Counted from the first letter of the stretch, positions 657-61,977 are shown. The stretch: 64,000 bases of DNA from an uncultured Selenomonadales bacterium (GCA_937877655.1 CALFJC010000176.1:4607-68606); one strand, 5' to 3'. A program made the numbers and translations. Notes: a model not told the origin generated them from the letters alone.

Positions 657-705
657 TAATTAGGAACCAGGAACTAAAACCTAAAACCTAAAACCTAAAA
701 CCTAT
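657..705. repeat. Tandem heptanucleotide array (AATTAGG AACCAGG AACTAAA then ACCTAAA x3, ACCTATC)
   Basis: Direct reading. Seven consecutive 7-nt units in the yabR-tilS spacer. Same family as the arrays at 2277, 17345, 43395, 46871 and 61914. Confidence 0.85.
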
Positions 706-718
706 CAGGAATGGAGAA

Positions 719-1711
719 TTGCCGTTGCTGAAAAAATTTGTTGACGTCTGCGCAACAGAAAAAATTTTCGACGGCGTCCGCAAAATTTTAATCGCGGTAT
801 CGGGCGGAGCAGATTCGCTTGCGTTGGCTGAACTGCTGATAAATTCTCGGCGAAGATTCGATTTAGAACTTTGCATTGCGCACTTTGAACACGGCTTGCG
901 CGGACAAGAATCGCTTGACGACGCGGCTTTTGTAAAAAATTTTGCCGAAGAACACGCCATAAAATTTGTCGGAGCCGGCGGCGACGTTAAAGCTTTCGCG
1001 GCAGAAAATAAAATTTCAATCGAGACGGCAGCGCGAATTCTTCGTTACGAATTTTTAAGCAAAGTCAAACGAGATTTAAATTTTGACGCGATAGCATTGG
1101 CGCATCATGCCGACGATCAAGCAGAGACAATTTTAATGCGGCTTCTGCGCGGTGCGACTTCGGAAGGTTTATCGGCGATGAAGTTCAGAACTTTTTCCGA
1201 AGAATACGGCTTGTTGATTCGCCCGCTGTTAAGATTCAGGAAAGTCGAGCTTGAAAATTTCTGCCGAGAAAAAAATTTACTGCCGCGCCTTGACGCAACC
1301 AATTTCGAGGCGGAAGCGACGCGCAATAAAATTCGCTTGGAACTTATCCCGACGTTGGAGAAATTTAATCCCGCGCTTGTCGAAACTCTCTGCAGACTCG
1401 GCGAAGTCACGGCGGAAGAATCGGACTTCATCTCCGCGCAGGCAGAAAAAATTTTCTCCGCCGTCGTCAAAGGAAATTGCATTATCCGCGCAGATTTTTT
1501 GAAACTCCATCCCGCACTTCAACGAGTCGTCATAAAAAAATTTCTCGCAAAAGTCACGGGCTCGACAAAAGATTTCGGCTTTGTGCACTTTGAAGGCGTC
1601 CGAAAAGTTTTGTTGAACAATTTGTCGGGTGTCGAGATCCCAAAAAATTTGCGGGCTGATTTAAGGAAAGGAAAACTTTACATAACCAAAAATTTTATCG
1701 GAAAGGGTTGA
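719..1711 (+). CDS. tilS: tRNA(Ile)-lysidine synthetase, short form
   Basis: PP-loop motif SGGADS (ILIAVSGGADSLALAEL). Conserved tilS-hpt-ftsH order. TTG start at 719 or 725 (GGAG at 714-717). Confidence 0.85.
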   Translation: MPLLKKFVDVCATEKIFDGVRKILIAVSGGADSLALAELLINSRRRFDLELCIAHFEHGLRGQESLDDAAFVKNFAEEHAIKFVGAGGDVKAFAAENKISIETAARILRYEFLSKVKRDLNFDAIALAHHADDQAETILMRLLRGATSEGLSAMKFRTFSEEYGLLIRPLLRFRKVELENFCREKNLLPRLDATNFEAEATRNKIRLELIPTLEKFNPALVETLCRLGEVTAEESDFISAQAEKIFSAVVKGNCIIRADFLKLHPALQRVVIKKFLAKVTGSTKDFGFVHFEGVRKVLLNNLSGVEIPKNLRADLRKGKLYITKNFIGKG

Positions 1712-2274
1712 TTGCTTTGAAAAGTAAGGAAGATTACATTGAACGCGTGCTGTACACCGAGGAAGAGATCGCCGCTCGTGTCAAGGAGCTCAGCGCGCAA
1801 ATCAGCGAGGATTACAAAAATATCGCCAAGCCGCTTTTGACGGTCGGCATTCTCAACGGCGCGGTTATGTTTTATACCGACGTTGTGCGGCGGCTGACCA
1901 TTCCCGTCCAATTCGATTTTCTTATCGCCTCCAGCTACGATGCCAATTCTCACACAAGCGGCAAAGTCAACATTCTTAAAAATCTCGACAACGATCCGAA
2001 GGGCAGAGATATTTTGCTTGTGGAAGACATTATCGACTCCGGCACTACGATGAATTTTCTTATCGAATATTTTCTTGACAAGAAGGCGAACAGCGTAAAA
2101 ATCTGTACGCTTCTCAACAAGCCGAGCCGCCGCAAAGTCGATGTCAAGATTGATTATTGCGGCTTTGAAGTTCCCGATGATTTTATTGTCGGCTACGGGC
2201 TTGACTTCGCGCAACATTATCGCAACCTGCCTTATCTGGGAATTCTGAAACGCAGTGTTTACGGTGGAAAATGA
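1708..2274 (+). CDS. hpt: Hypoxanthine-guanine phosphoribosyltransferase
   Basis: PRPP-binding motif LLVEDIIDSGTTM. TTG start overlaps the tilS stop (TTGA). Synteny with tilS and ftsH. Confidence 0.9.
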   Translation: MIALKSKEDYIERVLYTEEEIAARVKELSAQISEDYKNIAKPLLTVGILNGAVMFYTDVVRRLTIPVQFDFLIASSYDANSHTSGKVNILKNLDNDPKGRDILLVEDIIDSGTTMNFLIEYFLDKKANSVKICTLLNKPSRRKVDVKIDYCGFEVPDDFIVGYGLDFAQHYRNLPYLGILKRSVYGGK

Positions 2275-2276
2275 AA

Positions 2277-2318
2277 AGCAATTAGCAATTAGCAATTAGT
2301 AATGAGTAATGAGCAATG
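2277..2318. repeat. Heptad array, left arm (AGCAATT x3, AGTAATG x2, AGCAATG); its last ATG is the start codon of the next gene
   Basis: Direct reading. It starts 3 nt after the hpt stop. It is an imperfect inverted match (about 27 of 35 positions) to the array at 2679-2717. Confidence 0.85.
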
Positions 2319-2672
2319 AAAAAATTCAATGTGATAGTTGATAAGAGCATGGATTTTGCCGTAAGGATTGTGAAGCTGTATAAATTTTTGAAGGATACTC
2401 GTTCGGAATATGTTCTTTCAAAGCAAGTTTTGAGAAGCGGCACAAGTATAGGAGCCAACATCAAGGAAGCGACCTATGCTCAATCCAAAGCAGATTTTAA
2501 CGCGAAAATGTATATTGCCATGAAAGAAGCATCTGAAACCGAATATTGGATTGAACTTCTTGAAAGAACCGAATACATAACGAAAAAGCAAGCCGAGAGT
2601 TTGCTGACAGATTGTGTCGAGCTTATTAAAATTTTGACTGCCATTACAAAAACCGTAAAGAGTAATTCCTGA
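2316..2672 (+). CDS. Four-helix-bundle protein ('23S rRNA intervening-sequence protein' family)
   Basis: 118 aa. The sequence FAVRIVKLYKFL...SKQVLRSGTSIGANIKEA...KADFNAKMYIAMKEASETEYWIELL matches the family signature as I recall it. It interrupts the conserved hpt-ftsH pair. Confidence 0.8.
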   Translation: MKKFNVIVDKSMDFAVRIVKLYKFLKDTRSEYVLSKQVLRSGTSIGANIKEATYAQSKADFNAKMYIAMKEASETEYWIELLERTEYITKKQAESLLTDCVELIKILTAITKTVKSNS

Positions 2673-2678
2673 TTCCAA

Positions 2679-2717
2679 ATTCATTACTCATTACACATTG
2701 CTCATTACACATTAATT
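2679..2717. repeat. Heptad array, right arm (TTCATTA CTCATTA CACATTG CTCATTA CACATTA ATT)
   Basis: Direct reading. Inverted with respect to 2277-2318. Confidence 0.85.
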
Positions 2718-2732
2718 AAAGGGGCGTTTTGA

Positions 2733-4652
2733 TTGAACAGTTTTTTGCGCAACGTCGGGTTTTATTTGCTGGTGATTTTTATCGCGATAACTGCTTATGA
2801 CTATTTTTCCGTGAAGCCTCAACCTGTGGAAGAAACCGCTTATTCGCAATTTCTGGAGATGGTTGAAAAGGGCGAAGTCACGAAAGTTGTATTGGTAAAG
2901 AATACGATTAAAGTCACGAAAAAGGACGGCGGCGAGTTCACGACGATAGCACCCGACGAGCCGATTGGCGACGAAAATCTTGTCGGAAAACTCGAAGCCA
3001 AAGGAGTAGAAATAACTGCGCAGAATCCGAAAGATCCGCCGTGGTGGATGACGCTCCTTTCTTCTTTGTTGCCGATAGTAATTTTGATTGGCGCATGGTA
3101 TTTCATAATCATGCAAACTCAAGGCGGCGGCTCCAAAGTTATGTCTTTCGGGAAAAGCCGCGCAAAATTGATGGGCGGCGACAAAGTCAAAGTCACGTTT
3201 AACGACGTGGCGGGCGCGGATGAAGCCAAAGAAGAACTTCAAGAGGTCGTCGAGTTCCTTAAGCACCCGAAAAAATTTAATGATCTCGGCGCGAGAATTC
3301 CTAAAGGCGTTTTACTTTTCGGTCCGCCCGGCACGGGCAAAACTCTTTTGGCAAAAGCTGTCGCGGGAGAAGCGGGCGTTGCGTTTTTCTCTATAAGCGG
3401 CTCCGATTTTGTGGAAATGTTCGTGGGCGTCGGCGCGTCGCGAGTCAGAGATTTATTCGCGCAGGCGAAAAAAAATTCTCCCTGCATAATTTTTATTGAT
3501 GAAATTGATGCTGTCGGTCGTCAACGCGGAGTGAATGTCGGCGGCGGACATGATGAACGCGAACAAACTTTGAATCAGTTGCTTGTCGAAATGGACGGTT
3601 TCGCGCCCAACGAAGGGATAATCATAATTGCGGCAACGAACCGCCCCGACATTTTGGATCAAGCACTTTTGAGACCGGGACGCTTTGACAGACAAATTGT
3701 CGTCGATAAGCCCGATGTTGTGGGACGAATTGCGATTTTAAAAGTTCACACAAAAGGCAAGCCCATTGCGAAGGATGCCGACTTGGATATTTTGGCGCGG
3801 CGGACTCCGGGATTTACGGGCGCGGATTTGGCTAATCTTGTCAATGAAGCGGCACTTTTGGCGGCGCGCAGAAATAAACACGAAATTAACATGACGGAGC
3901 TTGAAGAATCGATTGAACGAGTTATGGCGGGTCCCGAAAGAAAATCCAAAGTCATGAGCGAGGACGAAAAAAAGTTGACGGCTTATCACGAAGGCGGACA
4001 TGCTTTGGTGGGCATGATGTTAAAGCACGCCGATCCTGTTCACAAAGTTACGATAATTCCTCGCGGCAGGGCGGGCGGTTATACTCTCATGTTGCCGAAA
4101 GAAGATCGAAGTTACGCCACGCGCTCGGAACTTTTGGACAGATTGAAAGTTGCAATGGGCGGGCGCGTCGCCGAAGAAATTGTTCTCAACGAAATTTCTA
4201 CGGGCGCATCTCAAGACATTCAGCAGGCGAGCCGCATTGTTCGCGCAATGATTATGCAATACGGCATGAGTGAACATTTGGGCTTTGTTTCTTACGGCGG
4301 CGATCCTTCTCAGCAATATTATTTCGGGCAGACGCAGAAAAATTATTCGGAGGAAGTTGCGGGCGAAATCGACAAAGAAATTCACAAGTACATGGAAGAA
4401 GCTTACGAGGCTTGCCGCACAATCATAAACGATAATCGCGACAGTCTTGAAAAAATCGCGCAGGCTTTGATGGACAAGGAGACGTTGACGGCGCAGGAAC
4501 TTAAAGATATTGTCTTCGGCGAAAAGAAAATTGATTTGGAAAAGCCGCCTGTCGACCCGCCGACTCCGCCGCCCGAACCCGTACCCGTCGAATTGGTTAA
4601 GGAAGTCGAACAACCGAAAATTCCCGACGGCTCGACGCCCGATCCCGTTTAA
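2733..4652 (+). CDS. ftsH: ATP-dependent zinc metalloprotease FtsH
   Basis: Two N-terminal TM segments, Walker A GPPGTGKT, Walker B IIFIDEID and zinc motif HEGGHAL. TTG start lies 8 nt after AAAGGGG. Confidence 0.95.
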
Positions 4653-4678
4653 AAAAAATTCAGCAGAACGATAGATTC

Positions 4679-4716
4679 AGGGAGGTTGAAGAAATTTTGA
4701 CCTTCCTAATTTTTTT
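4679..4716 (+). terminator. Intrinsic terminator after ftsH
   Basis: Stem AGGGAGGT (4679-4686) / ACCTTCCT (4700-4707), followed by a T-run at 4710-4716. Confidence 0.6.
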
Positions 4717-4733
4717 GCAGGGAGGAAAATTTT

Positions 4734-5259: not shown

Positions 5260-5277
5260 TTTTTGGGAGGAATTTTT

Positions 5278-6424: not shown

Positions 6425-6444
6425 TTTCTGCGAGGTGAATGAAT

Positions 6445-7413
6445 ATGCGAAAGACAATCGTTGAGATTTTGAAGAATGCGGGCGACAATTTTGTTTCGGG
6501 CGAGAGCATCGCCGGAGAGTTGGGCATTTCCCGTACTGCTATCTGGAAACATATTCAGAAACTTCGAGAGAGCGGCTACGAAATTATCAGCCGAGAAAGA
6601 TGCGGTTACAAATTAAAAGACGCGCCCGATCTTCTTTTGCCGAGTGAAATTCAAATCGGGCTTGAAACAGAAATTATCGGCAAGAACATGGAATATCATC
6701 CTTCGGTTGACTCGACAAATCGCGTTGCAAAAGCTCTTGCCTATAACGGCGCGGAAGAAGGAACAATCGTTGTTGCCGAAGAACAGGAAGTCGGCAAAGG
6801 GCGGCTTGACAGAAAATTTTTTTCGCCGCGAGGAAAAGGCATTTGGTTTTCCGTTATTTTGCGCCCTGAAATTTTGCCGAAAGATGCTCCGAAACTTACT
6901 TTGATGGCGGCGGTTGCGGTTGCCGAAGCAATGGCGCGTTTCAATCTCAAAGCCGAGATCAAATGGCCAAACGACATTATGTTTGAAGGAAAAAAACTCG
7001 TCGGCATTTTGACGGAGATAACGGGCGAAATCGGCAAGATAACTTATATCGTCGTCGGCGTCGGAATCAATGTAAATATCAGCCGCGAAGATTTTCCCGA
7101 AGAACTTCAAGACGTTGCGGCGTCGCTTTCCGAAATGAACGGCGAAATTTTATCTCGCGTGCAAATTTTCCGCGCAGTGCTTGAAGAATTCGACAAGCTT
7201 TATATCGAAGTCAAAAATTCGGGTTTTGATAAAGTCATTGAGAGTTGGAAAAAATATAATGTCACGCTCGGAAAAAATGTTCGCGTTATCTCGGCGGGCG
7301 AAGGCGAAGATTTTACGGGCAAAGCAGTTGATTTGAATTCGGACGGAGCACTTGTCGTCGAGACTAAAAACGGACGGCGGGCGGTTTATGCGGGTGATGT
7401 TTCAATCAGATAA
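6445..7413 (+). CDS. birA: Bifunctional biotin-[acetyl-CoA-carboxylase] ligase / biotin operon repressor
   Basis: N-terminal wHTH (ELGISRTAIWKHIQKLRESGYEI), ligase core (EEQEVGKGRLDRKFFSPRGKGIWFS) and a C-terminal SH3-like tail. Confidence 0.9.
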   Translation: MRKTIVEILKNAGDNFVSGESIAGELGISRTAIWKHIQKLRESGYEIISRERCGYKLKDAPDLLLPSEIQIGLETEIIGKNMEYHPSVDSTNRVAKALAYNGAEEGTIVVAEEQEVGKGRLDRKFFSPRGKGIWFSVILRPEILPKDAPKLTLMAAVAVAEAMARFNLKAEIKWPNDIMFEGKKLVGILTEITGEIGKITYIVVGVGINVNISREDFPEELQDVAASLSEMNGEILSRVQIFRAVLEEFDKLYIEVKNSGFDKVIESWKKYNVTLGKNVRVISAGEGEDFTGKAVDLNSDGALVVETKNGRRAVYAGDVSIR

Positions 7414-7645
7414 AAATTTTTCGGATAAAAAAATCCCTCAACCTGCGCGGGCGAGGGAATTTTTTTTTTGCGCGTCGTTGTGATATATTTTGATAAAGAT
7501 TTAAGAGTTTGAAAGATTTTTTGGGACGCGGCGGGCGATGTTTCAATCAGATAAAAATTTTTCGGATAAAAAAATCCCTCAACCTGCGCGGGCGAGGGAA
7601 TTTTTTTTTGCGCGTCGTTGTGATATATTTTGATAAAGATTTAAA
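7391..7645 (+). repeat. Tandem duplication (two copies of about 114 bp, 141-bp period) covering the last birA codons, its terminator and an extended -10 promoter
   Basis: Copy 1 (7391-7505) and copy 2 (7532-7645) are near-identical, with one T less in the T-run and C/T at position 5. Each holds a GDVSIR-stop, the hairpin CCCTC..GAGGG plus T-run (7435-7469 and 7576-7609), and TGATATATT (7481-7489 and 7621-7629). Confidence 0.9.
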
Positions 7646-7662
7646 GGTTTGGAGGCTTTTTT

Positions 7663-9009
7663 TTGAACGCAAGAGATATAGACATGTTGCACGGCTCGCT
7701 GTGGGACAAAATAATTATTTTCGCGTTGCCGCTGGCAATAACGGGCGGTATGCAACAATTTTTAAATGCGACGGACGTTTTCACATTGGGACAATTCGTC
7801 GGGAAAAATGCAATGGCGGCGGTCGGCAACAATACTTCGATGGTCGGATTAATCGTCAGCTTGATGATGGGCTTGAGTCTCGGCGCGAACGTCGTTATCG
7901 CCCAAAATATCGGCGCACAAAAAATTGATCGCGCACAATCGGCGGTGAGCACGGCTTTTATCTTGGCGGGCATTTGCGGAATTCTTTTCTGTATAATCGC
8001 GGAACTTTTGGTCGAGCCGATTTTTTATTTCTTGGAAGTGCCGTCAAGCGTCGTGGAAATGGCGGAAACTTATCTGCGAATTTTTCTGCTCGGCTTGCCC
8101 GCGATAAGTTTCTACAATTTTCAAGCGGCGATTTTCCGAAGCAAAGGCGACACGCGCACGCCGTTAATCGCATTGGTTTTTGCAAGCATTGCGAATATCA
8201 TTTTGAATTTAATTTTTGTCCTGCAATTCGATTTGGGAGTTGCGGGCGTGGCGGCGGCGACAGTCCTTGCCAATTTTTTAAGCGCACTGATTTTATTCCG
8301 AGAACTTTTGAAAGCCGAAGGAATTATAAAACTCCATCTCAACGCGCTGATTGTCGACAAGGAAGAGCTTTTTGAAATTGTCCGAATCGGTTTGCCGGCG
8401 GGCATTCAGGGAATGGTTTTTTCTCTGTCGAATCTTTTGATTCAAGCGGCGATAAATTCTTTGGGCGCGGACGCAATGGCGGCTTCGGCGGCGGCGTTTA
8501 CAATCGAAATAAATGTTTTCTGCGTGGTAAACGGCTTCGGGCAGGCGACAACAACTTTTGTCGGACAAAATTACGGCGCGGGAAATTTGCCTCGTTGCAA
8601 GCGGGCGACTTGGGTTTCAATGGGCTTGAGTGCATTTTTCACGCAGACGCTTTGCTTTATGATTTTATTTTTTGTGGAAGAAGTTTTGAGTCTCTTCAAC
8701 GAAGACCCCGAAGTCCTTCGGCTCGGCGCAATTCGGCTTTGGTATATCGTCGCGCCCGAAATGCTGAATGTAATTCTGGAAACTTTATCGGGAGCTCTGC
8801 GCGGCTACGGAATTTCAATGACGCCTGCCGTAATAACTTTGATTTGCGTTTGCGGCTTGCGGGTGACTTGGGTTTTCACGGCTTTTGAAAAAATCCCGAC
8901 CTACGAAACTTTGATGCTCGTTTATCCCCTAAGCTGGCTCCTCACGACGATCTGTTTAATCTTCGCATATTTTTATCACATAAAGAGATTGAAACCTGCG
9001 CGGAAATAA
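7663..9009 (+). CDS. MATE-family efflux transporter
   Basis: 448 aa, about 12 hydrophobic segments, MatE-like N-terminus (LWDKIIIFALPLAITGGMQQFLNATD). GGAGG lies 7 nt before TTG 7663. Confidence 0.85.
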   Translation: MNARDIDMLHGSLWDKIIIFALPLAITGGMQQFLNATDVFTLGQFVGKNAMAAVGNNTSMVGLIVSLMMGLSLGANVVIAQNIGAQKIDRAQSAVSTAFILAGICGILFCIIAELLVEPIFYFLEVPSSVVEMAETYLRIFLLGLPAISFYNFQAAIFRSKGDTRTPLIALVFASIANIILNLIFVLQFDLGVAGVAAATVLANFLSALILFRELLKAEGIIKLHLNALIVDKEELFEIVRIGLPAGIQGMVFSLSNLLIQAAINSLGADAMAASAAAFTIEINVFCVVNGFGQATTTFVGQNYGAGNLPRCKRATWVSMGLSAFFTQTLCFMILFFVEEVLSLFNEDPEVLRLGAIRLWYIVAPEMLNVILETLSGALRGYGISMTPAVITLICVCGLRVTWVFTAFEKIPTYETLMLVYPLSWLLTTICLIFAYFYHIKRLKPARK

Positions 9010-14590: not shown

Positions 14591-14806
14591 TCCCCCTTTT
14601 TTCTAAAGTGGGCACGCAAAACCATCTCGGCGTCTCGGCAACTTTCAAGTTCATTTTTAACTTTGTGTATTGAACAAACTTTTCTTTTGCCGCCCCAAAA
14701 GAAAAGTTTGCAAAAGAAAAGGGGCTCCAACCGGCAAGAAAACATCCTGTTTTCGTTGCCGGCGGGCGCACATCCTTGTGCGCCCGTGTCTTCGCCACCC
14801 GCTGTA
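14591..14806 (-). repeat. Multi-hairpin intergenic repeat, copy A (short variant, minus orientation)
   Basis: It contains CCCCCTTTTTTCTAAAGTGGG (HP4), CAAACTTTTCTTTTG..CAAAAGAAAAGTTTG (HP3), CCGGCAAGAAAACATCCTGTTTTCGTTGCCGG (HP2) and GGGCGCACATCCTTGTGCGCCC (HP1). It is the reverse complement of copy D. Confidence 0.85.
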
Positions 14807-14814
14807 AGCTTTTT

Positions 14815-14841
14815 CATTACGCATTACGAATTACGCATTGC
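14815..14841. repeat. Heptad array (CATTACG CATTACG AATTACG CATTGC) between repeat copies A and B
   Basis: Direct reading. Confidence 0.7.
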
Positions 14842-14972
14842 AAAAAGAAAAGGCTCCTCGCAGGGGCGTTTGTCTCTCGTTATTCGGAGTAGCAAATAAC
14901 CTTTGCCGTGTGTGCCGGCAATAGAAACATCCTGTTTCTGTTGCCGGCGGAGCCGTCATCCATGACGGCTCC
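14840..14972 (-). repeat. Multi-hairpin intergenic repeat, copy B (long variant, minus orientation); the terminal hairpin has a replaced stem and doubles as a + strand terminator
   Basis: It is the reverse complement of copy C across about 110 nt, including the roughly 60-nt insertion. At the HP1 position it has GGAGCCGTCATCCATGACGGCTCC followed by T6. Confidence 0.85.
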
Positions 14973-15586: not shown

Positions 15587-17365
15587 ATGGATATTCTCCA
15601 AGAAAAATTGAAAACGTTGCCCGCCGCGCCCGGCGTTTACCTCATGAAAGATATTCGCGGGAAAATTATTTATGTCGGCAAGGCTAAGGTTTTAAAAAAT
15701 CGCGTCCGCCAATATTTTCAATCGAATAAAAATCTCGGCGCGAAAGTCAAGGCAATGGTCGCCAAAATCGTCGACTTTGAAACAATCGTCACGTCAAACG
15801 AAGTCGAGGCTCTGATTTTGGAATGCAATTTGATTAAAAAATATCGCCCGCGCTACAATATCAGTCTCAAGGACGATAAAAGTTATCCTTATCTCAAAAT
15901 CACTGCCGAAGAATTTCCGCGAATAATTTTGACGCGGCGCGTGATTCATGACGGCTCGCGATATTTCGGACCTTACACGAACGGGCTTGCCGTCAAGGAA
16001 ACTCTTCAACTTTTAAGAAAAATTTTTCCGCTCCGAACTTGCAGAATTTTTTCAAAGCGTCCGTGTTTGGAGTTTCACATTAAACGATGCCTCGCGCCCT
16101 GTGCAAACAAAATTTCTCGCGAAGATTATATGCGCTTTGTCAATGCGGCAGAAAAATTTTTGGAAGGACACACCGCGCAGGTTGAACGCGAAATTTCTGC
16201 ACAGATGACGGCGGCGGCGGAGGCATTGAATTTTGAACAGGCGGCGAAGTTCAGAGATATTTTGTCGGCAATAAGAAAAGTTACGGAGAAACAAAAAATC
16301 GTAACCGATTTGGGCGACGCGGACGCAATAGGCTTGGCGCGGCTTGACAGCGAGACTTGCGCACAGATTTTTTTTATTCGAGACGGAAAAGTTGTCGGGC
16401 GCGAAAATTTTTTATTAAACGGCGCGGCGGACGAATCGGACGCGCAGGCAGTCACGGAATTTATAAAGCAATATTACAGTCGGGCGCAAATTTCGGCGAC
16501 AGAAATTTTATTGCCCGTCGCATTGGCGGAAGACGATTTAAAAATTTTGGCTGAATGGCTCGGCGCGAAAATTTTGGAGCCGAAACGCGGCGTGAAACGT
16601 TCGCTGGTTGAAATGGCGATTGAAAACGCGCAGAAATTTTTGTCGGAAGAATCTGCGCGGCGACAAATAAAAAATGCACAGACAAAAGGCGCGGTCGAGG
16701 AGCTGAAAAAATTTTTGAACTTGCCGAAACTCCCGCGCCGCATGGAGTGCTTTGACATTTCGCATATTCAAGGCGCGGAAACTGTAGCGTCAATGGTTGT
16801 GTTTGAAGACGGCGTGCCCGATAAAAAAAGTTATCGCCGCTTCAAAATTCGTTCGACGGAAGGCAAGCCCGATGATTTTTTGTCAATGCGCGAAGTCACG
16901 AGCCGCCGATATGAGAAACTTTCCGAAGAAAATTTGCCCGACTTAATAGTTATCGACGGCGGAATCGGGCAATTAAATTCTGCGCTTGAAATAATTCGCG
17001 GCGCGGGACATAAAGTGCCCGTCGTCGGCTTGGCAAAACAATTTGAATTGATTTTCGTTGAAGGCGCGTCAATCCCCGTCGAATTGCCCAAAGACAGTCA
17101 AGCGTTAAAACTTCTGCAGAGAATCCGTGACGAAGCCCATCGATTTGCGATAACTTATCACAGAAAACTTCGGCGGGCACGAAATTTGAAATCGGAATTG
17201 GACAATGTGGCGGGCATCGGAGCGAAAAGACGCGCCGAGCTGTTTAAAAAATTCGGGACGATAGAAAAAATAAAATCGGCAACGGTTGAGGAACTTGCCG
17301 CCGTGCCGAGCATGAATCGCGCCGCCGCCGAAGCCTTGAAAAGGCAATTAGGAATTATGAATTAG
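15587..17365 (+). CDS. uvrC: Excinuclease ABC subunit C
   Basis: GIY-YIG N-terminus (PGVYLMKDIRGKIIYVGKA...YF), UVR domain (FEQAAKFRD) and a C-terminal HhH pair. 592 aa. Confidence 0.95.
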   Translation: MDILQEKLKTLPAAPGVYLMKDIRGKIIYVGKAKVLKNRVRQYFQSNKNLGAKVKAMVAKIVDFETIVTSNEVEALILECNLIKKYRPRYNISLKDDKSYPYLKITAEEFPRIILTRRVIHDGSRYFGPYTNGLAVKETLQLLRKIFPLRTCRIFSKRPCLEFHIKRCLAPCANKISREDYMRFVNAAEKFLEGHTAQVEREISAQMTAAAEALNFEQAAKFRDILSAIRKVTEKQKIVTDLGDADAIGLARLDSETCAQIFFIRDGKVVGRENFLLNGAADESDAQAVTEFIKQYYSRAQISATEILLPVALAEDDLKILAEWLGAKILEPKRGVKRSLVEMAIENAQKFLSEESARRQIKNAQTKGAVEELKKFLNLPKLPRRMECFDISHIQGAETVASMVVFEDGVPDKKSYRRFKIRSTEGKPDDFLSMREVTSRRYEKLSEENLPDLIVIDGGIGQLNSALEIIRGAGHKVPVVGLAKQFELIFVEGASIPVELPKDSQALKLLQRIRDEAHRFAITYHRKLRRARNLKSELDNVAGIGAKRRAELFKKFGTIEKIKSATVEELAAVPSMNRAAAEALKRQLGIMN

Positions 17366-17424
17366 GAATTAGGAATTAGGAATGAAAAACCTATTCCCTA
17401 GTTCCTAGTTCCTAGTTCCTAATT
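17345..17424. repeat. Palindromic heptad array (AATTAGG-type arm / CCTAGTT-type arm) forming a hairpin between the convergent uvrC and nagA
   Basis: The left arm has five heptads and the right arm five, with a GAAAAA loop. The uvrC stop (17363-17365) and the nagA stop (17412-17414) both lie inside the arms. There is no canonical T-run. Confidence 0.85.
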
Positions 17425-18575: not shown

Positions 18576-18846
18576 GCGGTGAAAAAAGGGCGCACAGGAC
18601 GTGCGCCCGCCGGCAACAGAAACAGGATGTTTCTATTGCCGGCACACACGGCAAGGGTTATTTGCTACTCCGAATAATGAAGAACAAACGCCCCCGCGAG
18701 GTGCCCTTTCTTTTGCAACTTTTCTTTGGGCAAGCAAAGAAAAGTTGATCCTATAAATAAAAAATTATTTTCAAACTCAATCGAAGTGGCGAGCCGCCGA
18801 CAATGACGAAGGTTTTGCGAACCCACTTTTTAGAAAAAAGGGGGGC
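18576..18846 (+). repeat. Multi-hairpin intergenic repeat, copy C (long variant, plus orientation)
   Basis: GCGGTG...GGGCGCACAGGACGTGCGCCC, CCGGCAACAGAAACAGGATGTTTCTATTGCCGG, a roughly 60-nt insertion, CAACTTTTCTTTGGGCAAGCAAAGAAAAGTTG, a spacer, then CCCACTTTTTAGAAAAAAGGGGGG. Confidence 0.85.
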
Positions 18847-43328: not shown

Positions 43329-43352
43329 AATTTAAAGCACCAAAAATTTTTA

Positions 43353-43385
43353 AGAGCCTCGACTTTTGTCGAGACTCTTTTTTTA
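43353..43385 (+). terminator. Intrinsic terminator after the giant gene
   Basis: AGAGCCTCGAC tttt GTCGAGACTCT followed by T7. Confidence 0.8.
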
Positions 43386-43394: not shown

Positions 43395-43426
43395 TCATTC
43401 CTAATTCCTCATTCCTAATTCCTAAT
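43395..43426. repeat. Heptad array, single arm (CATTCCT AATTCCT CATTCCT AATTCCT AATT)
   Basis: Direct reading. Its last unit runs into the -35 box of the valS promoter. Confidence 0.8.
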
Positions 43427-43454
43427 TGACTTTAAGGCGGCGGCAGTTTATTAT
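43426..43454 (+). promoter_or_regulatory. Sigma-70-type promoter for valS-folC
   Basis: TTGACT (43426-43431), 17-nt spacer, TATTAT (43449-43454). Confidence 0.6.
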
Positions 43455-46127: not shown

Positions 46128-47424
46128 AGACGCTTTAAAATATCTGGATTGGCTTTGCATTTTCGGAGTAAAAGAAGGGCTCGAAAGAATCAAGGAATTG
46201 ACAGCCGCATTGGGCGAACCGCAAAATTTTTATCGGACGATTCACGTTGCGGGCACAAACGGCAAAGGCTCCGTCTGCGCGATGCTCGCCGAAATGTTGA
46301 AGGCTTCGGGCTTGAAAGTCGGCTTGTTTACTTCGCCGCATTTGGAAAGTTATTGCGAACGAATCCGTATTTATAACGGAAAAAATTTTGATGCTAGAAA
46401 TGCGCAGGCATTTCGTACCGACGCGGCAAATGACTACGATAATTTTCAAAATCCGAGCGCGACCGCTGTTTGCGCACTTTTTAAAAGTGGTGATAGAAAT
46501 ATTTCCGAAAAAGATTTTGCCGAGATGATTTTCCGCGTGAAAAATTGCAACGTAAATGCGACACATTTTGAGGTTTTGACTGCCGCCGCCTTTCTGTATT
46601 TTAAAGAACAAGCGGTTGACATTGCGGTTATCGAAGTCGGGCTCGGCGGAACTTTTGATTCTACGAACATTATCACGCCCGAAATTTCTGTTATTACGAA
46701 TGTCGCGCTTGATCACGAAAATATTTTGGGCGATTTGGAAAATATTGCGCGGAATAAGGCGGGCATTATCAAGGAAAATGTTCCTGTCGTGACAGGGGCG
46801 ACCGGCAAGCCGCTTGAGATTATCAAAAAAGTTGCCGCCGAAAAAAATTCTCCGCTATATGAAATAAATCCCTATAACCTAAAACCTATAACCTGTAACC
46901 TGAACCTGCGCGGCGATTATCAAAAATTTAATGCGGCGGTAGCGATAAAGGCGGCGGAGATTCTAAAGCTTGACAAGGCGGCGATTGAAAAAGGTTTGGC
47001 TGAAGTCGAATGGGCGGGACGTTTTGAAGTCGTCGAAACTTCGGACGGAGTTTTTGTGATTGACGGGGCGCACAATCCGCATGGCGCAAAGGCATTGCGT
47101 CAAGCTCTCGACAAAAATTTTCCGAGCGGCAAAAGAATTTGGGTTTTCGGCGCACTTAAGGACAAAAATTTTTCCGAGATGATAAAGATTTTATTCCGCG
47201 CAGATGATTTTGTTATCGTGACGCCGCCCGATTCTGAACGTGCCGCCTCAACCGAAATGCTTTGCAAATGTCTGCATGAAAATAAAATTCCCTGCGCGGC
47301 AGTCGAAAATAATTTTGATGCAGTCGAACTCCTGAAAAAATCTTCGGGCGACGTGAAAATAATCGCGGGTTCGTTGTATCTGATTGGTACGCTAAGGAAA
47401 TACATTGCGCTTGAGAAGAAGTAG
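46114..47424 (+). CDS. folC: Folylpolyglutamate synthase / dihydrofolate synthase
   Basis: Mur-ligase P-loop VAGTNGKGSV. valS-folC synteny. TTG 46114 gives an N-terminus (M)KIYEDALKYLD, typical of FolC. It overlaps the valS end by 14 nt. The track start at 46039 is too long. Confidence 0.88.
   Translation: MKIYEDALKYLDWLCIFGVKEGLERIKELTAALGEPQNFYRTIHVAGTNGKGSVCAMLAEMLKASGLKVGLFTSPHLESYCERIRIYNGKNFDARNAQAFRTDAANDYDNFQNPSATAVCALFKSGDRNISEKDFAEMIFRVKNCNVNATHFEVLTAAAFLYFKEQAVDIAVIEVGLGGTFDSTNIITPEISVITNVALDHENILGDLENIARNKAGIIKENVPVVTGATGKPLEIIKKVAAEKNSPLYEINPYNLKPITCNLNLRGDYQKFNAAVAIKAAEILKLDKAAIEKGLAEVEWAGRFEVVETSDGVFVIDGAHNPHGAKALRQALDKNFPSGKRIWVFGALKDKNFSEMIKILFRADDFVIVTPPDSERAASTEMLCKCLHENKIPCAAVENNFDAVELLKKSSGDVKIIAGSLYLIGTLRKYIALEKK
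46871..46908. repeat. Heptad array inside the folC reading frame (CCTATAA CCTAAAA CCTATAA CCTGTAA CCTGAA CCTG)
   Basis: Direct reading. It is translated as PYNLKPITCNLNL. Confidence 0.75.
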
Positions 47425-47582
47425 CGGTTGGCGAGTTCACGGGCGCACAGGACGTGCGCCCGCCGGCAACGAAAACAGGATGTTTTCTTGCCGGTCAAAC
47501 GCCCTTTTCTTTTGGCAACTTTTCTTTTGGGCGCAGCAAAAGAAAAGTTGTAAATCCTTCCACTTTTTGGAAAAAAAGGGGG
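47424..47582 (+). repeat. Multi-hairpin intergenic repeat, copy D (short variant, plus orientation)
   Basis: GCGGTTGGCGAGTTCAC, GGGCGCACAGGACGTGCGCCC, CCGGCAACGAAAACAGGATGTTTTCTTGCCGG, CAACTTTTCTTTTGGGCGCAGCAAAAGAAAAGTTG and CCACTTTTTGGAAAAAAAGGGGG. The last hairpin supplies the SD for the next gene. Confidence 0.85.
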
Positions 47583-56502: not shown

Positions 56503-56503
56503 A

Positions 56504-57340: not shown

Positions 57341-57343
57341 AAA

Positions 57344-57377
57344 ATCTGCTCTTCGACGCGGGGAGCGGATTTTTTTT
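57344..57377 (+). terminator. Intrinsic terminator
   Basis: ATCTGCTC..GAGCGGAT stem followed by T7. Confidence 0.65.
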
Positions 57378-57443
57378 GTGCGTTGTAAAAAATTTCCTTA
57401 ATCGTGTATAATGACTTTGAAAATTTTACAGCGAGGGATTTTG

Positions 57444-58571
57444 ATGAATCGCAGGAATTTTATCAGGAATTTTCTAATCGGCGCGGCGGGCTTGACGGCG
57501 GCGGCGGGCGGCGGAATTTTTTATTACATAAATCGTCCGGAATTCGGAAGGTTGCCGACGGGTTCGCGGCTTGAAAAGATTTTATCTTCGCCGCATTACT
57601 TCAAAGATCATTTCGAGTGCTTGACGCCCGTAAAAGTCATGAGCGAAGAAATTCAAGATAAAGAAAATCGGATTGTGGCGACGTGGAAATTTTTATTCGG
57701 CGATAAAGCGGGACTTGTGCCGCCGAAGCCCGTTCCGACAATCAAAACCGATTTAAATTCGCTCGGCAACGAAGACTGCGCGGTTTGGATGGGGCATTCG
57801 ACGATTTATCTTCAGCTCGGCGGACGAAAAATTTTGCTTGACCCGGTATTTTCTCCGTATGCCTCGCCGATTTTTTTTGTCAACCGCGCTTTTGAAGGCA
57901 GCAATATTTATTCCGCCGAAAATTTCCCGCCGATTGATATTTTGGCGATAACACACGACCATTGGGATCATCTCGATTATCCTACGATTATTTCTCTCAA
58001 GCCGAAGATAAAAACCGTGCTTTGTCCGCTGGGTGTCGGAGAATATTTTGAGCAATGGGGCTTTGACGCGGAAAAAATCATTGAGGAAGATTGGGATTCG
58101 GTTATCGACTTCGGACGCGGCTTGACGGCGCACATTTTACCGAGCCAGCATTTTTCGGGGCGCATGTTGACGCAAAATCCAACCGAATGGTGCGCCTTTG
58201 CCTTCGTGACATCTGCGCGGAAAATTTTTTGTTCCGGCGACGGCGGCTACTCGGAGCATTTCAAAGACATTGGAAAAAAATTCGGCGACTTCGATTTGGC
58301 ATTTATGGAAAACGGGCAGTATAATTTGGCATGGCACGCGATTCACATGTTGCCGAACGAAACCGCGCAGGCTTCGGAAGATATTCGCGCCAAAAAAGTT
58401 GTGCCGATTCATTCGGGAAAATTTGCATTGGCGCGGCACATGTGGAATGAACCTTACAAAGATTTGCTTGCCGAGAGTGCGGGAAAAAATTACGAGCTTT
58501 TGACTCCGAAAATCGGCGAATTGATAACTTTTGGCGGCGAACAAAATTTTTCGCGGTGGTTTGAATTATGA
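57444..58571 (+). CDS. MBL-fold metallo-hydrolase with a Tat-type signal
   Basis: MNRRNFIRNFLIGAAGLTAAAGG is a twin-arginine signal. Metal motif ITHDHWDHLD. GAGGG lies 6 nt before ATG 57444. Confidence 0.75.
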   Translation: MNRRNFIRNFLIGAAGLTAAAGGGIFYYINRPEFGRLPTGSRLEKILSSPHYFKDHFECLTPVKVMSEEIQDKENRIVATWKFLFGDKAGLVPPKPVPTIKTDLNSLGNEDCAVWMGHSTIYLQLGGRKILLDPVFSPYASPIFFVNRAFEGSNIYSAENFPPIDILAITHDHWDHLDYPTIISLKPKIKTVLCPLGVGEYFEQWGFDAEKIIEEDWDSVIDFGRGLTAHILPSQHFSGRMLTQNPTEWCAFAFVTSARKIFCSGDGGYSEHFKDIGKKFGDFDLAFMENGQYNLAWHAIHMLPNETAQASEDIRAKKVVPIHSGKFALARHMWNEPYKDLLAESAGKNYELLTPKIGELITFGGEQNFSRWFEL

Positions 58572-59197
58572 TTGCATTAATTTTAATCGCGGCGGTCGTG
58601 ACGATGGCATTTCTTTACAAATTTTCGCCGACGAAAAAAACTTTCATGATAATCTGCGCGGTTTTGGTAATTGTATTCGGCACAAGCGCGTTTATTCGCG
58701 GTCAGCAAGTTCAACAGGAAAAAATTTCGCGGGCGCAACTTGAAGAACTGCTGGAGCAACAAAAAATTTTCGGCGAGTGGTACGCGGCTTATCAAAAGGA
58801 TATTGATCGTCTTGACAGAAATTGGCAATCATACCACAACATAATTGAGGGTTTGAATTCGATTGACGCGCAAAATTTCAATGCCGATGCGTTGCACATG
58901 CGATTTTTGATTTTGGAGCAGGATTCGATTGAGGAGCAGATAAAAATTCGGATGCTTTACGCGCCGCCGGAATTGAGCAGAGAAAGTCGGGCATTGGTCG
59001 AGACAGTCATTTACAAAACTCAGCAATACGTTGACGCGCAGACGAAAACAATAATTTTATCGGAGGCGGCGGCAAAACCTCCCGTCGAATTGGAGGATTT
59101 GAAACTGAAACTTCATGACATAATGATTCGCGAATCGCCCGAAGGATTATTTACGGCGCAAGAAATTTCGGCAATACGCTCTGCTTTGAGAGATTAA
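58568..59197 (+). CDS. Membrane-anchored hypothetical protein
   Basis: ATGA overlap with the upstream gene. Two N-terminal TM segments, then a helical region. I recognise no family. Confidence 0.5.
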
Positions 59198-59214
59198 AGA
59201 ACGGAGGAAATTTT

Positions 59215-61014
59215 TTGAACGACAAGATAAGGAATTTTTCAATCATAGCGCACATAGATCACGGCAAATCGACGCTCGCCGACAGGTTAATTGAAATGAC
59301 GGGCACGGTTGAAAAGCGCGATATGAACGAACAATTTTTGGACAACATGGAGCTTGAACGCGAGCGCGGCATTACGATAAAGGCGCAGACTGTTCGTTTG
59401 AAATACACGGCGCGGGACGGCGAAACTTATCAGCTGAATTTAATCGACACGCCCGGTCACGTCGATTTTACTTACGAAGTTTCGCGAAGTCTTGCCGCTT
59501 GCGAAGGAGCACTTTTGGTTGTCGATGCCACTCAAGGCGTCGAGGCACAAACTTTGTCGAATGTTTATCTGGCGTTGGAACATGATTTGGAAATTGTTCC
59601 CGTCATCAACAAAATCGATTTGGCGAGTGCCGACGTTGAAAGAGCCCGCGCAGAAATTGAGGAGGCAATAGGGCTTGACGCAAGCGACGCGGTTAAATGT
59701 TCCGCGAAAACCGGCGAAGGCGTCGAGGAAATTTTGGAAGCGATTGTAAAAAAAATCCCGCCGCCCGAAGGTGACGAGTCAAAACCTTTGCAAGCACTGA
59801 TTTTCGATTCTTATTTTGATTCCTACAAAGGCGCGGTTGCGCATGTCAGAATTTTTGACGGAAAAGTTCGTAAGGGCGATACGTTGAAACTTTTGGCGAC
59901 GGGCAAAGAATTTGAGGCAACGGAAATAGGAATTTTTTCTCCCGCAATGACTGAACTTGAGGAACTCTGCGCGGGCGAAGTCGGATACATTTGCGGCAGT
60001 TTGAAAGATGTTCGCGACGTTCGGGTAGGCGACACAATCACGACTTCAAAAAATCCCGCCGAAGCATTGGCGGGGTATCGTGCGCCGGTCTCAATGGTTT
60101 TTTGCGGGCTTTACCCGACGGACAGCGTTGACTATGACAATTTAAAAGACGCGCTTGAAAAACTTCAGCTGAACGACGCCGCACTTGTTTACGAGCCCGA
60201 AACTTCAGCCGCATTGGGATTCGGATTTCGTTGCGGCTTTTTGGGTTTGTTGCATATGGATGTTATTCAAGAGCGTTTGGAGCGCGAATACAAATTAAAA
60301 CTCGTGACGACTGCGCCGAGCGTCGTTTACAAAGTTCATAAGACGGACGGAAAAATTTTCACGATTGACAATCCCGCCGCGTTGCCGCCCGTCACCGAAA
60401 TTAAATTTATTGAAGAACCGATGGTTAAGGCGACCGTGATTGTTCCGAGCGAATTTATCGGCGCGGTTATGGAACTTTGTCGCGATAAGCGCGGCACTTA
60501 TCGGAGCATGGATTATATCGACAAAACTCGCGTCATGATCGTTTACGAAATGCCGCTCAACGAAATTATCTATGATTTTTTCGACAAACTCAAATCGATG
60601 ACTCGCGGTTATGCCAGCCTTGACTATGAACTTTCCGAATACAAGCAGAGCGATCTTGCGAAGTTGGACATTCTTTTGAACGGCGATTTGATTGACGCGC
60701 TGAGTTCGATTGTTCATAAAAGTCGTGCCGCAAAAATCGGACGGATTCTCGCGCTGAAACTCAAAAGGATTATTCCCGAACAACTTTTTGATATTCCCGT
60801 CCAAGCGGCTATCGGCGGACGAATTATCGCCCGCGAAACCGTCAAGGCGCGGCGCAAAGACGTTTTGGCGAAATGTTACGGCGGCGACGTTTCGCGCAAG
60901 CGCAAACTTCTGGAGAAACAAAAGGCGGGCAAAAAACGCATGAAAGCCGTTGGCAGTGTCGAATTGCCGCAGGAAGCTTTTATGGCAGTTTTGACCGTCG
61001 GCGACGAGGAATAA
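59215..61014 (+). CDS. lepA: Elongation factor 4 (LepA)
   Basis: G1 [10 protein letters not shown]3 DTPGHVDF, G4 NKIDL and a LepA-specific C-terminal domain. GGAGG lies 8 nt before TTG 59215. Confidence 0.95.
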
Positions 61015-61092
61015 TTTCATGGCAAAAAATAAAAGAATCATTTCTTTGAACATTAAAAGAAAAAAATGTCAAAAGGCTCAAGGAATGAAAAA

Positions 61093-61127
61093 AACCGCTC
61101 AAAATTTTTGGGCGGTTAATTTTTTTT
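61093..61127 (+). terminator. Intrinsic terminator after lepA
   Basis: AACCGCTC..GGGCGGTT stem followed by T8. It lies inside the track ORF 61019-61711, which argues against that long start. Confidence 0.65.
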
Positions 61128-61204
61128 CAAAATATTTTTTTGGAACTGTTGACAAACGGCAAATAAAATCTCCTGCAAAGATCAAATCTATATTCACTCA
61201 AAAA

Positions 61205-61711
61205 ATGGACGAAATTTATTCCGAGCAGATGATCACCGACAAATTGCAAGTCTCTCGAACTCCCGTTCGCGAAACAATTTTGCAGTTGCGTTTTGAAAAT
61301 CTTGTGGACGTTTTCAGCGGGCGCGGTTTCAGCGTCAGACTGATTCATTTTTTCGACGTGCAACAGATAATCCAAGCGCGAACTGCGATTGAGAGCGCGA
61401 GTCTTCGCGCTTTGATAATCGGATTGGATACACGCGAAGGACAAGAAATTCTTAAGCAAATGGAAATTTGCGTAAAACAGGACATGCCGGCGGCAATCTC
61501 TGACGAAAATAATTATAACTTCATGCGGACACAACAGGAACAGGCGATTGTCAGTTCACTGAAAAAACAAAATCGAACACTCGCCGCGATTGACGAACAC
61601 GAAAAAATTTTTTCCGCAGTTAAACGACGCGATACCGACGGCGCGATAAGAGCACTTGTCGATCATATGAACATGACGGAAAATATCTTGCACGAAATGA
61701 TGGCGGATTAA
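61205..61711 (+). CDS. GntR/FCD-family regulator, shortened and possibly degenerate
   Basis: wHTH core KLQVSRTPVRETILQLRFENLVDVFSGRGFSV and an FCD-like tail (DEHEKIFSAVKRRDTDGAIRALVDHM). At about 168 aa it lacks the usual first helix and the middle of the FCD domain. Confidence 0.5.
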   Translation: MDEIYSEQMITDKLQVSRTPVRETILQLRFENLVDVFSGRGFSVRLIHFFDVQQIIQARTAIESASLRALIIGLDTREGQEILKQMEICVKQDMPAAISDENNYNFMRTQQEQAIVSSLKKQNRTLAAIDEHEKIFSAVKRRDTDGAIRALVDHMNMTENILHEMMAD

Positions 61712-61913
61712 TTTTTGATTTGCATTGGCTGTTTAAGGAGACTAATTTTTTTCAAAAGTTTTAGTTGTATACTGCGTGTTACACGTGACACTCCCCACGC
61801 CTAAAGGCAGGGGCTTCTTATTTTAAATTAAATAATTTTGGTTTGGCTTTTGCCGCAAGGTCTGATGAACACTCGTTGCCCGGACATTAAAAAAAATCAG
61901 CAACGCGACGAAA

Positions 61914-61977
61914 CAATTAGCAATGTGCAATTAGTAATGAAAATTCATTGCTAATTACTCATTACTCATTACTAATT
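61914..61977. repeat. Palindromic heptad array (AATTAGC/AATTAGT arm versus CATTACT arm)
   Basis: CAATTAGCAATGTGCAATTAGTAATG aaaatt CATTGCTAATTACTCATTACTCATTACTAATT. Same unit type as the arms flanking the four-helix-bundle gene. Confidence 0.85.

Follow-up and report, generated by a model that had tools for sequence, protein, structure and literature searches.

What are the tandem runs of seven-nucleotide units that recur along a stretch of genome from an uncultured Selenomonadales bacterium, and from what do they derive? The stretch, the window in what follows, is the 64,000 nucleotides of C176:4607-68606 in an assembly of 3.03 Mb in 181 contigs with 45% G+C, and this source genome is labelled G000 (other G-numbers denote other genomes, mostly of the same genus, C-numbers contigs of G000, and L-numbers cassette or junction loci). 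A sequence-only reading of the window had placed eight heptamer arrays in it, and period-7 repetition is indeed seen at all eight, both with Tandem Repeats Finder (TRF) and by direct reading, with 3.6-5.9 copies per array by TRF, so that each has at least three units. The eight arrays appear to belong to one family of about 360, made up of the arms of small gene cassettes and of gene-less derivatives of such arms, and an explanation of the arrays as cassette-derived and stem-forming is the one we regard as probable.

Two of the arrays, at 2277 and 2679, turn out to bracket a gene for a four-helix-bundle protein, and it is through this gene that the family can be understood; the sequence-only reading missed it although it had the arrays themselves right. 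The parts of this cassette are:

2277..2318, plus strand: left arm of the cassette, AGCAATT x3, AGTAATG x2 and AGCAATG (TRF AGCAATT/AGTAATG x5.9)
2316..2672, plus strand: four-helix-bundle cassette gene, 118 aa, PF05635 / TIGR02436, an Avd-like 23S rRNA intervening sequence (IVS) protein
2679..2717, plus strand: right arm of the cassette, CATTACT/CATTACA/CATTGCT units (TRF TCATTAC x4.9)

The left arm begins 3 nt past the stop codon of hpt, and the cassette gene takes its start codon from the last ATG of this arm; the right arm begins 7 nt past the stop of that gene and ends 15 nt before the ftsH start. The protein matches Pfam PF05635 with E = 1e-30 and TIGR02436 ("four helix bundle protein"), and in PDB it matches 2RLD with E = 1e-41 and also 2GSC, entries with five chains each, the 2GSC protein having been described as a homopentamer (PMC4990558). 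When the segment 2262-2732 is folded, the 2277 and 2679 arms form the closing stem around the 357-nt gene in both the minimum free energy and the centroid structures, with the start codon inside the stem. The cassette protein is under purifying selection, with ratios of nonsynonymous to synonymous substitution (dN/dS) of 0.05-0.06 between the window protein and its homologues and of 0.05-0.15 for cassette proteins overall.

G000 has five PF05635 genes and inverted heptamer arrays lie on both flanks of all five, which cannot be chance because arrays occupy 0.38% of the genome (relaxed scan, below). The five cassettes, each with its own arm unit, are:

between cheB and cheA: arm unit AAAGGGA
upstream of murG: arm unit TATAGCT
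between atpG and atpD: arm unit AGGAACT
between hpt and ftsH (the window cassette): arm unit AGCAATT/AATGAGT
fifth site, on C177, followed by a terminator: arm unit AATTAGG

The same architecture recurs well outside this genome. A survey covered 76 cassettes, of which 5 belong to G000 and 41 to other species of its genus; a further 20 come from other families within the phylum, and 10 lie on plasmids of other phyla. An arm was counted where three consecutive units stood at >=85% identity. The plasmid cassettes were reached via tblastn, where 26/30 matches were cyanobacterial and Gemmatirosa and Azospirillum were found in addition, and among the best 120 protein homologues there were close genus members only. 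By repeat period the flanks of the 76 cassettes read as follows:

period 7: at least one flank in 53/76, both flanks in 31/76
period 8: at least one flank in 6/76, both flanks in 2/76
periods 5, 6, 9 and 10: at least one flank in 0/76, both flanks in 0/76

No array lay within the open reading frame (ORF) of any of the 76 surveyed cassettes. The share of armed cassettes in this survey is probably high because close subfamilies were sampled. Four of them (L189, L190, L194 and L204), from three genomes of this phylum and an Azospirillum plasmid, sit inside large subunit rRNA at model positions ~1025-1415 and are classical IVSs. Within the genus certain junctions are used again and again, namely atpG/atpD, cheB/cheA, carA/carB, secY/adk and the sites upstream of murG, argC, the NiFe-hydrogenase large subunit gene and glmU. 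Orthologous cassettes at the same host junction have arm units that differ from species to species, and left and right arms nevertheless remain complementary; the mean duplex energy is -41.9 kcal/mol for cognate arms versus -28.8 kcal/mol for non-cognate arms, and the cognate partner ranks first in 16/44 cases and among the top four in 27/44. The atpG/atpD cassette of G053 (L137) has period-8 arms, GGAATAGT and ACTATCCC, and a period of seven is therefore not absolutely fixed. On cyanobacterial plasmids four-helix-bundle genes are also found in CRISPR-cas operons (L196, L197 and L201), between cas6 and cas4 in Pseudanabaena, upstream of cas4 in Anabaena sp. 90 and between cas10 and cmr3 in Picosynechococcus, and the arrays of the Pseudanabaena cassette, (AAAGCTA)x15 and (AAAGCCA)x9, are direct and not inverted.

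Are the arrays then a peculiarity of the window? The sequence-only reading had named their absence from the rest of the genome as the outcome that would make them a local oddity, and the whole assembly holds 359 period-7 arrays in 3.03 Mb. A strict self-shift scan of the assembly returned 89 period-7 arrays against 0-3 for each other period from 4 to 14, and none when the same strict scan was run on locally shuffled sequence. The relaxed scan returned the 359 arrays of period 7 against 41, 21, 7 and 3 for periods 5, 6, 8 and 9, or one array per 8.4 kb, very near the one per 8 kb estimated from the window. The dominant unit AATTAGG accounts for 182 arrays, and a dozen further units, related to it or unrelated, include AACTAGG, AACCTAT, AAAACCT, AAGCTAT, AATGAGT and AAAAGGG. 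Intergenic arrays number 256/359 (71%), although only ~9% of the genome is non-coding on a crude gene call, inverted pairs occur at 44 loci, and there is no strand bias of arrays relative to flanking genes (102 vs 84). Array lengths peak sharply at 31 nt (110/359), with lesser peaks at 24 and 27 nt. An exact 31-mer, AATTAGGAATTATGAATTAGGAATTAGGAAT, whose second unit is the fixed variant AATTATG, is present in 55 copies, or 87 at <=1 mismatch, and pure (AATTAGG)4AAT in 11 copies only. A hairpin of ~77 nt, composed of AATTAGGAATTAGGAATGAGGAAT, a loop of ~20 nt and ATTCCTAATTCCTAATTCATAATTCCTAATT, recurs in ~45 copies in both orientations. Because of the 31-mer copies, the 31-nt peak and the recurrent 77-nt hairpin, the arrays are to be seen as copies of defined elements and not as independent local expansions.

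These figures bear directly on the simplest account of such repeats, that they arose in place by replication slippage favouring 7-nt units and that their nearness to four-helix-bundle genes is incidental. Heptamer simple-sequence repeats are over-represented in many bacterial genomes and polymerase slippage has been proposed for them, as far as Mrazek 2007 is reported in PMC4692102 and PMC4679880, and at the valS site of the window the copy number does vary by whole units between species. Slippage is nonetheless highly improbable here, given that an exact 31-mer with a fixed internal variant unit is found 55 times, that lengths peak at 31 nt instead of decaying, that arrays lie on both flanks of 5/5 PF05635 genes, that 86% of gene-less arrays have a unit of the cassette arms, and that three sister genomes with similar hpt-ftsH gene order have no arrays in 1.04 Mb. 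The sequence-only reading had preferred a spreading or recruited element to simple slippage, and this preference is borne out by four results, the 55 exact 31-mers, the 31-nt peak, the ~45 hairpin copies and the absence of arrays from the three sister genomes.

The 77-nt hairpin also stands right after the stop codon of several large RTX-like proteins (C130:60209, C96:13024, C180:31938 and C69:1191). These paralogues share a C-terminal region of ~300 residues at 88-92% DNA identity, and so the hairpin was duplicated along with the gene ends. The possibility that the ~1-kb repeats near some of the hairpins conceal a transposase was considered and discarded, these repeats being the conserved C-terminal parts of the RTX-like paralogues.

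Most arrays have no gene, and it is through their units that they connect to the cassettes. Among the 352 gene-less arrays 86% have a consensus unit that also occurs in the arms of the five G000 cassettes, and with the cassettes of most other genomes the same unit match falls to 0-6%. About 45 hairpins that lack a gene have both arms in common with the AATTAGG-armed cassette on C177, down to its diagnostic variant units, AATGAGG on the left and TTCATAA on the right. Some hairpin loops read "TAGGAATGGAGAAACA", in which the ATG-GAG-AAA start of the C177 cassette is fused to the AAAACA lying before the right arm of that cassette, as is expected from a deletion of the ORF between short direct repeats.

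Loaded and empty forms of one site can be found in relatives, a search that the sequence-only reading had proposed and that shows the two alternating both ways. At hpt/ftsH the cassette is loaded in G000, the closest relative G058 (87% DNA identity) has the hairpin alone, six other species are empty, and G004 has a hairpin of unrelated units. At C166:5907 the case is reversed, with the hairpin alone in G000 and a loaded cassette in G058. The hpt/ftsH gap of seven genus species (L116, L118, L120, L123 and L126-L128) holds a gene of ~220 codons with a signal-peptide-like start (MLKKIFS...), which is not in G000 and other species, and the junction is a hot spot of gain and loss.

What host carries this family, and how is it distributed among relatives? 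The sequence-only reading found the core gene order not to be cyanobacterial. Homologues nearly identical to one gene bear the name Selenomonadaceae bacterium, the best named FtsH match (74%) is from a metagenome-assembled genome of Anaerovibrio sp., tilS-hpt-ftsH stand in a Firmicutes-type order, and the PASTA kinase is likewise of that type. From these sequence matches the host would be like Selenomonadaceae, with a gut- or rumen-type genome, and not the heterocystous cyanobacterium that short tandemly repeated repetitive (STRR) sequences in the strict sense have as host. (AATTAGG)x3 occurs in 16/25 genomes of the same genus and in 0/16 from other families of the class, and the unit is thus lineage-specific; G024, a member of the genus, has GGATTAA in place of AATTAGG. 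Genomes sampled for both gene and arrays compare as follows:

G000: 5 PF05635 genes, 359 period-7 arrays, 3.03 Mb sampled
G058: 5 PF05635 genes, 39 period-7 arrays, 278 kb sampled
G053: 2 PF05635 genes, 13 period-7 arrays, 400 kb sampled
G003: 0 PF05635 genes, 0 period-7 arrays, 323 kb sampled, >=99% complete
G071: 0 PF05635 genes, 0 period-7 arrays, 328 kb sampled, >=99% complete
G054: 0 PF05635 genes, 0 period-7 arrays, 390 kb sampled, 80% complete

Across the 1.04 Mb of G003, G071 and G054 together there are zero period-7 arrays, and around hpt-ftsH these array-free sisters have their housekeeping genes in a similar order. All of the orthologous sites that could be located in gene-less genomes are empty (15/15), and over the 25 genus genomes gene copies and (AATTAGG)x3 matches correlate (rho = 0.47, p = 0.017).

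The remaining arrays of the window lie among the genes of its housekeeping order (S1-domain gene, tilS, hpt, ftsH, PP2C phosphatase, PASTA kinase, uvrC, valS, folC), with the strand given where one is assigned:

657..705: solo array, AATTAGG/AACCAGG units then (AAAACCT)x4 (TRF CTAAAAC x4.4), predicted unstructured
14815..14841: solo array, CATTACG x3.6, no fold
17345..17424: gene-less hairpin, AATTAGG, AATTATG and AATTAGG x3, a 13-nt loop, then CCTAGTT x3.6 inverted (TRF AATTAGG x5.4)
43395..43427: solo array, ATTCCTA x4.4, after the terminator of a 7,524-aa gene
46871..46908, plus strand: array within the folC coding sequence, CCTATAA/CCTAAAA/CCTGTAA, x5.6, in-frame reading PYNLKPITCNLNL
61914..61977: gene-less hairpin, AATTAGC, AATGTGC, AATTAGT and AATG, a short loop, then CATTGCT, AATTACT, CATTACT x2 and AATT

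Three inverted-pair loci had been proposed as hairpins from the sequence alone, and all three hold, those at 17345 and 61914 by folding locally and the 2277/2679 pair by closing around the gene. The 17340-17430 fold has -38.6 kcal/mol and z = -8.4 versus shuffles, that of 61908-61982 has z = -4.4 on the plus strand and -4.3 on the minus strand, and the four solo arrays of the window have z about 0 and no fold. The right arm at 61914..61977, downstream of a GntR-family gene, is called by TRF as TCATTAC x4.9.

The contexts are as varied as had been claimed, in that an array supplies the uvrC stop, another is in frame within folC and a third overlaps a -35 box at 43426. The 17345 hairpin provides the last five uvrC codons and the TAG stop, and touches the stop of a convergent amidohydrolase gene; G058 has a hairpin at the identical point with units that are different yet complementary, and the hairpin is not in G013, G074, G016 or G017, where the uvrC C-terminus is longer. 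The 657..705 array follows the S1-domain gene, whose stop is at 632, and precedes tilS; in this gap G058 and G016 have arrays of other units (AATGCGT type) and G013, G043, G074 and G017 have none, so that overall three species have arrays of differing units at this site and four are without. The 14815..14841 array lies in the space where the PASTA kinase gene and an RNase H gene converge, and units of its AATGCGT/AATTACG class make up the arms of type-2 cassettes in G062 and G064. The last unit of the 43395 array enters the -35 hexamer TTGACT of the valS promoter; G043 has an array of 5 units at the corresponding position, G013 has a degenerate one there, and in G074 the array is displaced. 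The gene upstream of it is a single ORF of 7,524 codons that takes up 35% of the window (20754-43328) and has a strong terminator at 43352-43379. The folC segment has an equal-length periodic version in G058 and G043, and an equal-length non-periodic one in G013.

Further in-frame arrays are inside hisD-, purL- and M16-peptidase-like genes (C108:13258-13293, C44:9056-9087, C152:14535-14565, C101:33894-33920). Arrays in coding sequences mostly replace a loop of equal length in array-free relatives and encode ELGIRNE-type peptides. At the 5' side of genes, ~14-17 of 210 array ends reading ...AGGAATG give the start codon to a real gene, and start-codon supply is an occasional co-option and not the main role of the arrays; the idea of a portable 5' leader with Shine-Dalgarno sequence and ATG was dropped, with just 17/210 ends opening an ORF of >=100 codons.

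How would such a family come about? A complete cassette has a PF05635 gene of ~120 codons between two inverted runs of four to five heptamers and is situated between two host genes that are transcribed together. In the cassette-derived, stem-forming explanation the arms would pair, once the operon is transcribed, into an imperfect stem of ~25-35 bp, by which the gene is enclosed and its start codon buried, and RNase III would probably cut this stem by analogy with the identically built intervening sequences of 23S rRNA, the cassette thereby being tolerated in essential operons or in rRNA with the flanking RNA unharmed. Loss of the gene would leave behind a hairpin of 60-80 nt, and hairpins and single arms would then have multiplied to hundreds of intergenic sites, where older arrays may have been overwritten by gene conversion. 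Some copies have acquired a local use and furnish a stop or start codon, a -35 box or a loop of a protein. On the same analogy the stem is likely to be RNase III-cleavable, insulating cassettes and punctuating operon mRNAs; we infer this role of RNase III because excision of the Coxiella IVS is known and the RNase III gene is present in G000. What the sequences themselves show is how the cassette is built, that gene and arrays occur together, that gene-less hairpins derive from a cassette, that the arms co-vary and that the protein is under purifying selection; cleavage by RNase III, the way copies are made and any part that the protein plays in copying are inferred.

Several observations weigh against this explanation. 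About one array in two is solo, with no structure predicted for it, and so a stem cannot be the function of these arrays. The correlation of gene and arrays fits equally the protein as driver, the arrays as cassette remnants or the gene landing in arrays. G132, from another family, has five gene copies and its arm unit is confined to the cassette, so that mass amplification of gene-less arrays is a trait of some lineages only and not general, and gene-less arrays as a universal companion of the cassette were rejected on this ground. No machinery for copying was evident either, since no reverse transcriptase (PF00078) was found in G000 or in the likewise array-rich G016 and G053, no Y1 transposase (PF01797) in G000 or 8 genus genomes, and no target-site duplication at the 44 hairpin copies examined. 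Lastly, 8/9 sites occupied in G000 are occupied also in G058, often with different units, so that what looks like spread could in large part be old arrays being homogenised and not new insertion. As shared sites (these 8/9, uvrC and S1/tilS) carry different units, comparison of the sequences suggests that site occupancy is older than the present array sequences and that arrays have been overwritten and homogenised within each genome, which would amount to concerted evolution, and true new insertion may occur alongside it.

Spread by a retroelement, such as a diversity-generating retroelement (Avd plus reverse transcriptase), was set aside with the lack of PF00078 in G000, G016 and G053; conversely G018, also of the genus, has 14 PF00078 matches yet no PF05635 gene and no (AATTAGG)x3 match. 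The profile of G018 implies that mobile-element load differs greatly among species of the genus.

Short, palindromic, multicopy and intergenic as they are, the hairpins recall repetitive extragenic palindromic (REP) sequences, bacterial interspersed mosaic elements (BIMEs) and miniature inverted-repeat transposable elements (MITEs), and could have been moved by an unrelated transposase with the four-helix-bundle genes as passengers caught between two copies, all the more as other genes are sometimes bracketed by inverted arrays too. This is very unlikely, because no transposase adjoins the repeated copies, target-site duplications are missing from the 44 hairpin copies, and the layout of a gene between arrays recurs across phyla with unrelated units, which random capture does not predict; mobilisation by a REP-associated tyrosine transposase (RAYT) or IS200 was rejected on the lack of a Y1 transposase in the 9 genus genomes. 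The genes bracketed by distant inverted arrays amount to 31 pairs, not clearly above chance given the abundance of AATTAGG.

Could the solo arrays point instead to a protein that binds them? The arrays would in that case be binding sites of a sequence- or shape-specific protein, most plausibly the pentameric four-helix-bundle protein itself, and would make up a post-transcriptional regulon, with hairpins and cassettes as by-products of a protein-RNA relationship and not substrates of RNase III. The typical array has 4-5 units, which may be set beside the five chains of 2RLD and 2GSC, the protein is under strong purifying selection, many hairpins sit 5-10 nt upstream of GGAGG, solo arrays are predicted to be unstructured single strands, and AATNNNN-type units go with type-2 proteins and other units with type-1 proteins; a similar role was proposed by MacGregor for the TAACTGA repeats (PMC4679880). 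However three very similar type-1 proteins of G000 lie between quite different units (AAAGGGA, TATAGCT and AGGAACT), arrays show no strand bias relative to flanking genes, and they are found also in coding sequences and past convergent gene ends. We hold a regulon, together with the by-product status of hairpins and cassettes, to be unlikely. A sponge of the CsrA type for GGA was rejected, abundant units such as AAGCTAT and AATGAGT having no GGA on either strand.

A bolder proposal, which we offer tentatively and think doubtful, is that the PF05635 pentamer acts in trans to maintain, homogenise and propagate heptamer arrays, so that gene and arrays form one self-propagating system. If this were true the cyanobacterial STRRs, the GGGAATC repeats of Xanthomonas and the AATTAGG arrays of this genus would be footprints of the protein, and the equal-length in-frame overwriting of loops would point to patch replacement (templated conversion) and not insertion.

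Other features of the window stand apart from the heptamer family. There is a 141-bp tandem duplication at 7390-7670 (2.0 copies, 92% identical) at the birA 3' end and the start of a MATE transporter region. A second dispersed intergenic repeat of ~130 nt, not related to the heptamers, lies at 47419-47548 and also at ~14591-14972 and ~18576-18846, with >15 copies in G016 and several in G058. No Rfam match reached the gathering threshold in the window, and the cassette arms gave no meaningful Rfam match at E up to 10, Gut-1 included. An association of arrays with tRNAs was rejected, the window holding no tRNA genes.

Cyanobacteria have been known to carry dispersed heptamer repeats since 1990, and such repeats were recognised later in Xanthomonas and Beggiatoaceae; no explanation of their origin or function has gained acceptance, and there is just as little agreement on what ORF-bearing rRNA IVSs and the very large "four helix bundle protein" family are for. 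This genome joins the three. New here is the gene-less side, hundreds of arrays matched in unit to cassettes, as are hairpins derived by deletion at ~45 copies, reciprocal loaded and empty sites, and array-free sister species without the gene. A vague resemblance is in this way turned into testable hypotheses, of RNase III punctuation of operons, of binding between protein and arrays and of copying without a known transposase, for which the genus supplies natural contrasts of presence and absence. The in-frame overwriting of loops and the donated stops, starts and -35 boxes indicate a repeat family that is actively reshaping genes.

Overall the comparison with known systems is wider than the sequence-only reading allowed, which had cyanobacterial STRRs as the sole comparable class, since heptamer arrays are known also from Xanthomonas and Nostoc (PMC4692102), Beggiatoaceae and Bacteroidetes (PMC4679880) and the Coxiella IVS (PMC4990558). 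As in REP/BIME and MITE families, the elements here are short, palindromic, multicopy and intergenic, and gene-less copies far outnumber the gene-carrying parent. Unlike those families they show no Y1 transposase and no target-site duplication, arm repeats differ from cassette to cassette, and the parent cassette encodes only a small helical-bundle protein and no known recombinase.

The GGGAATC repeats of Xanthomonas and the GGGGA(C/T)T repeats of Nostoc (Rehm et al. 2015, PMC4692102) are likewise genus-restricted intergenic heptamer arrays, some as inverted pairs between convergent genes, and at conserved sites their length and sequence vary from one close species to another. They are G-rich and were studied as G-quadruplex formers, in contrast to the units here, which cannot form quadruplexes, and no cassette gene was noted by Rehm et al. 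2015 (PMC4692102); Xanthomonas does have a PF05635 pentamer, XCC0516 (PDB 2GSC). The TAACTGA repeats of marine Beggiatoaceae, some cyanobacteria and Bacteroidetes (MacGregor 2015, PMC4679880) are also mostly intergenic heptamers, in sets of two to six copies at ~170 sets per genome that often end right before a start codon, and their "split" sets resemble the present arrays in having a related variant unit inside. Those repeats are strongly oriented to start codons and almost never inverted (PMC4679880). Here by contrast there is no strand bias, inverted pairs stand at 44 loci, and ~14-17/210 ends supply a start codon.

The likeness to cyanobacterial STRRs that the sequence-only reading drew is real and rests on shared array features. 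STRR heptamers of heterocystous cyanobacteria were reportedly described by Mazel et al. in 1990, a paper cited in PMC4692102. Both they and the present arrays consist of tandem, lineage-specific 7-nt units, number in the hundreds, lie mostly between genes and fall into several unit families within one genome, and PF05635 genes of cyanobacterial plasmids are also flanked by heptamer arrays. Unlike in STRRs, the host is Selenomonadaceae-like and the units are A+T-rich (AATTAGG), not CCCCAGT, TTGGTCA or CAACAGT. No link between STRRs and a four-helix-bundle gene was found in the searchable papers, nor did the full-text literature yield a paper linking PF05635 genes to dispersed heptamer arrays.

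The rRNA IVSs are the remaining comparison. In Leptospira a 23S rRNA IVS that bears an ORF is said to have been described by Ralph and McClelland in 1993. The one known case of an ORF-bearing IVS with heptamers in its stem is in helix 45 of the 23S rRNA of Coxiella burnetii, which carries a PF05635 (S23p) ORF and, in the stem region, tandem GACAGAT heptamers of variable copy number, and which experiments have shown to be excised by RNase III, the first repeat being where the 5' cut falls (Warrier et al. 2016, PMC4990558). The window cassette is like an rRNA IVS in having the same protein family in the loop and complementary termini as a closing stem. It is unlike one in lying between the protein genes of an operon (hpt/ftsH) and not in 23S rRNA helix 45 or 25, and its protein is under purifying selection in contrast to the decaying ORF of Coxiella. 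Unlike described IVSs, this genome has ~350 gene-less arrays and hairpins besides. The arrays are a real, STRR-like family of spreading elements tied to four-helix-bundle cassettes of the IVS type, and the sequence-only reading had interpreted them largely rightly.

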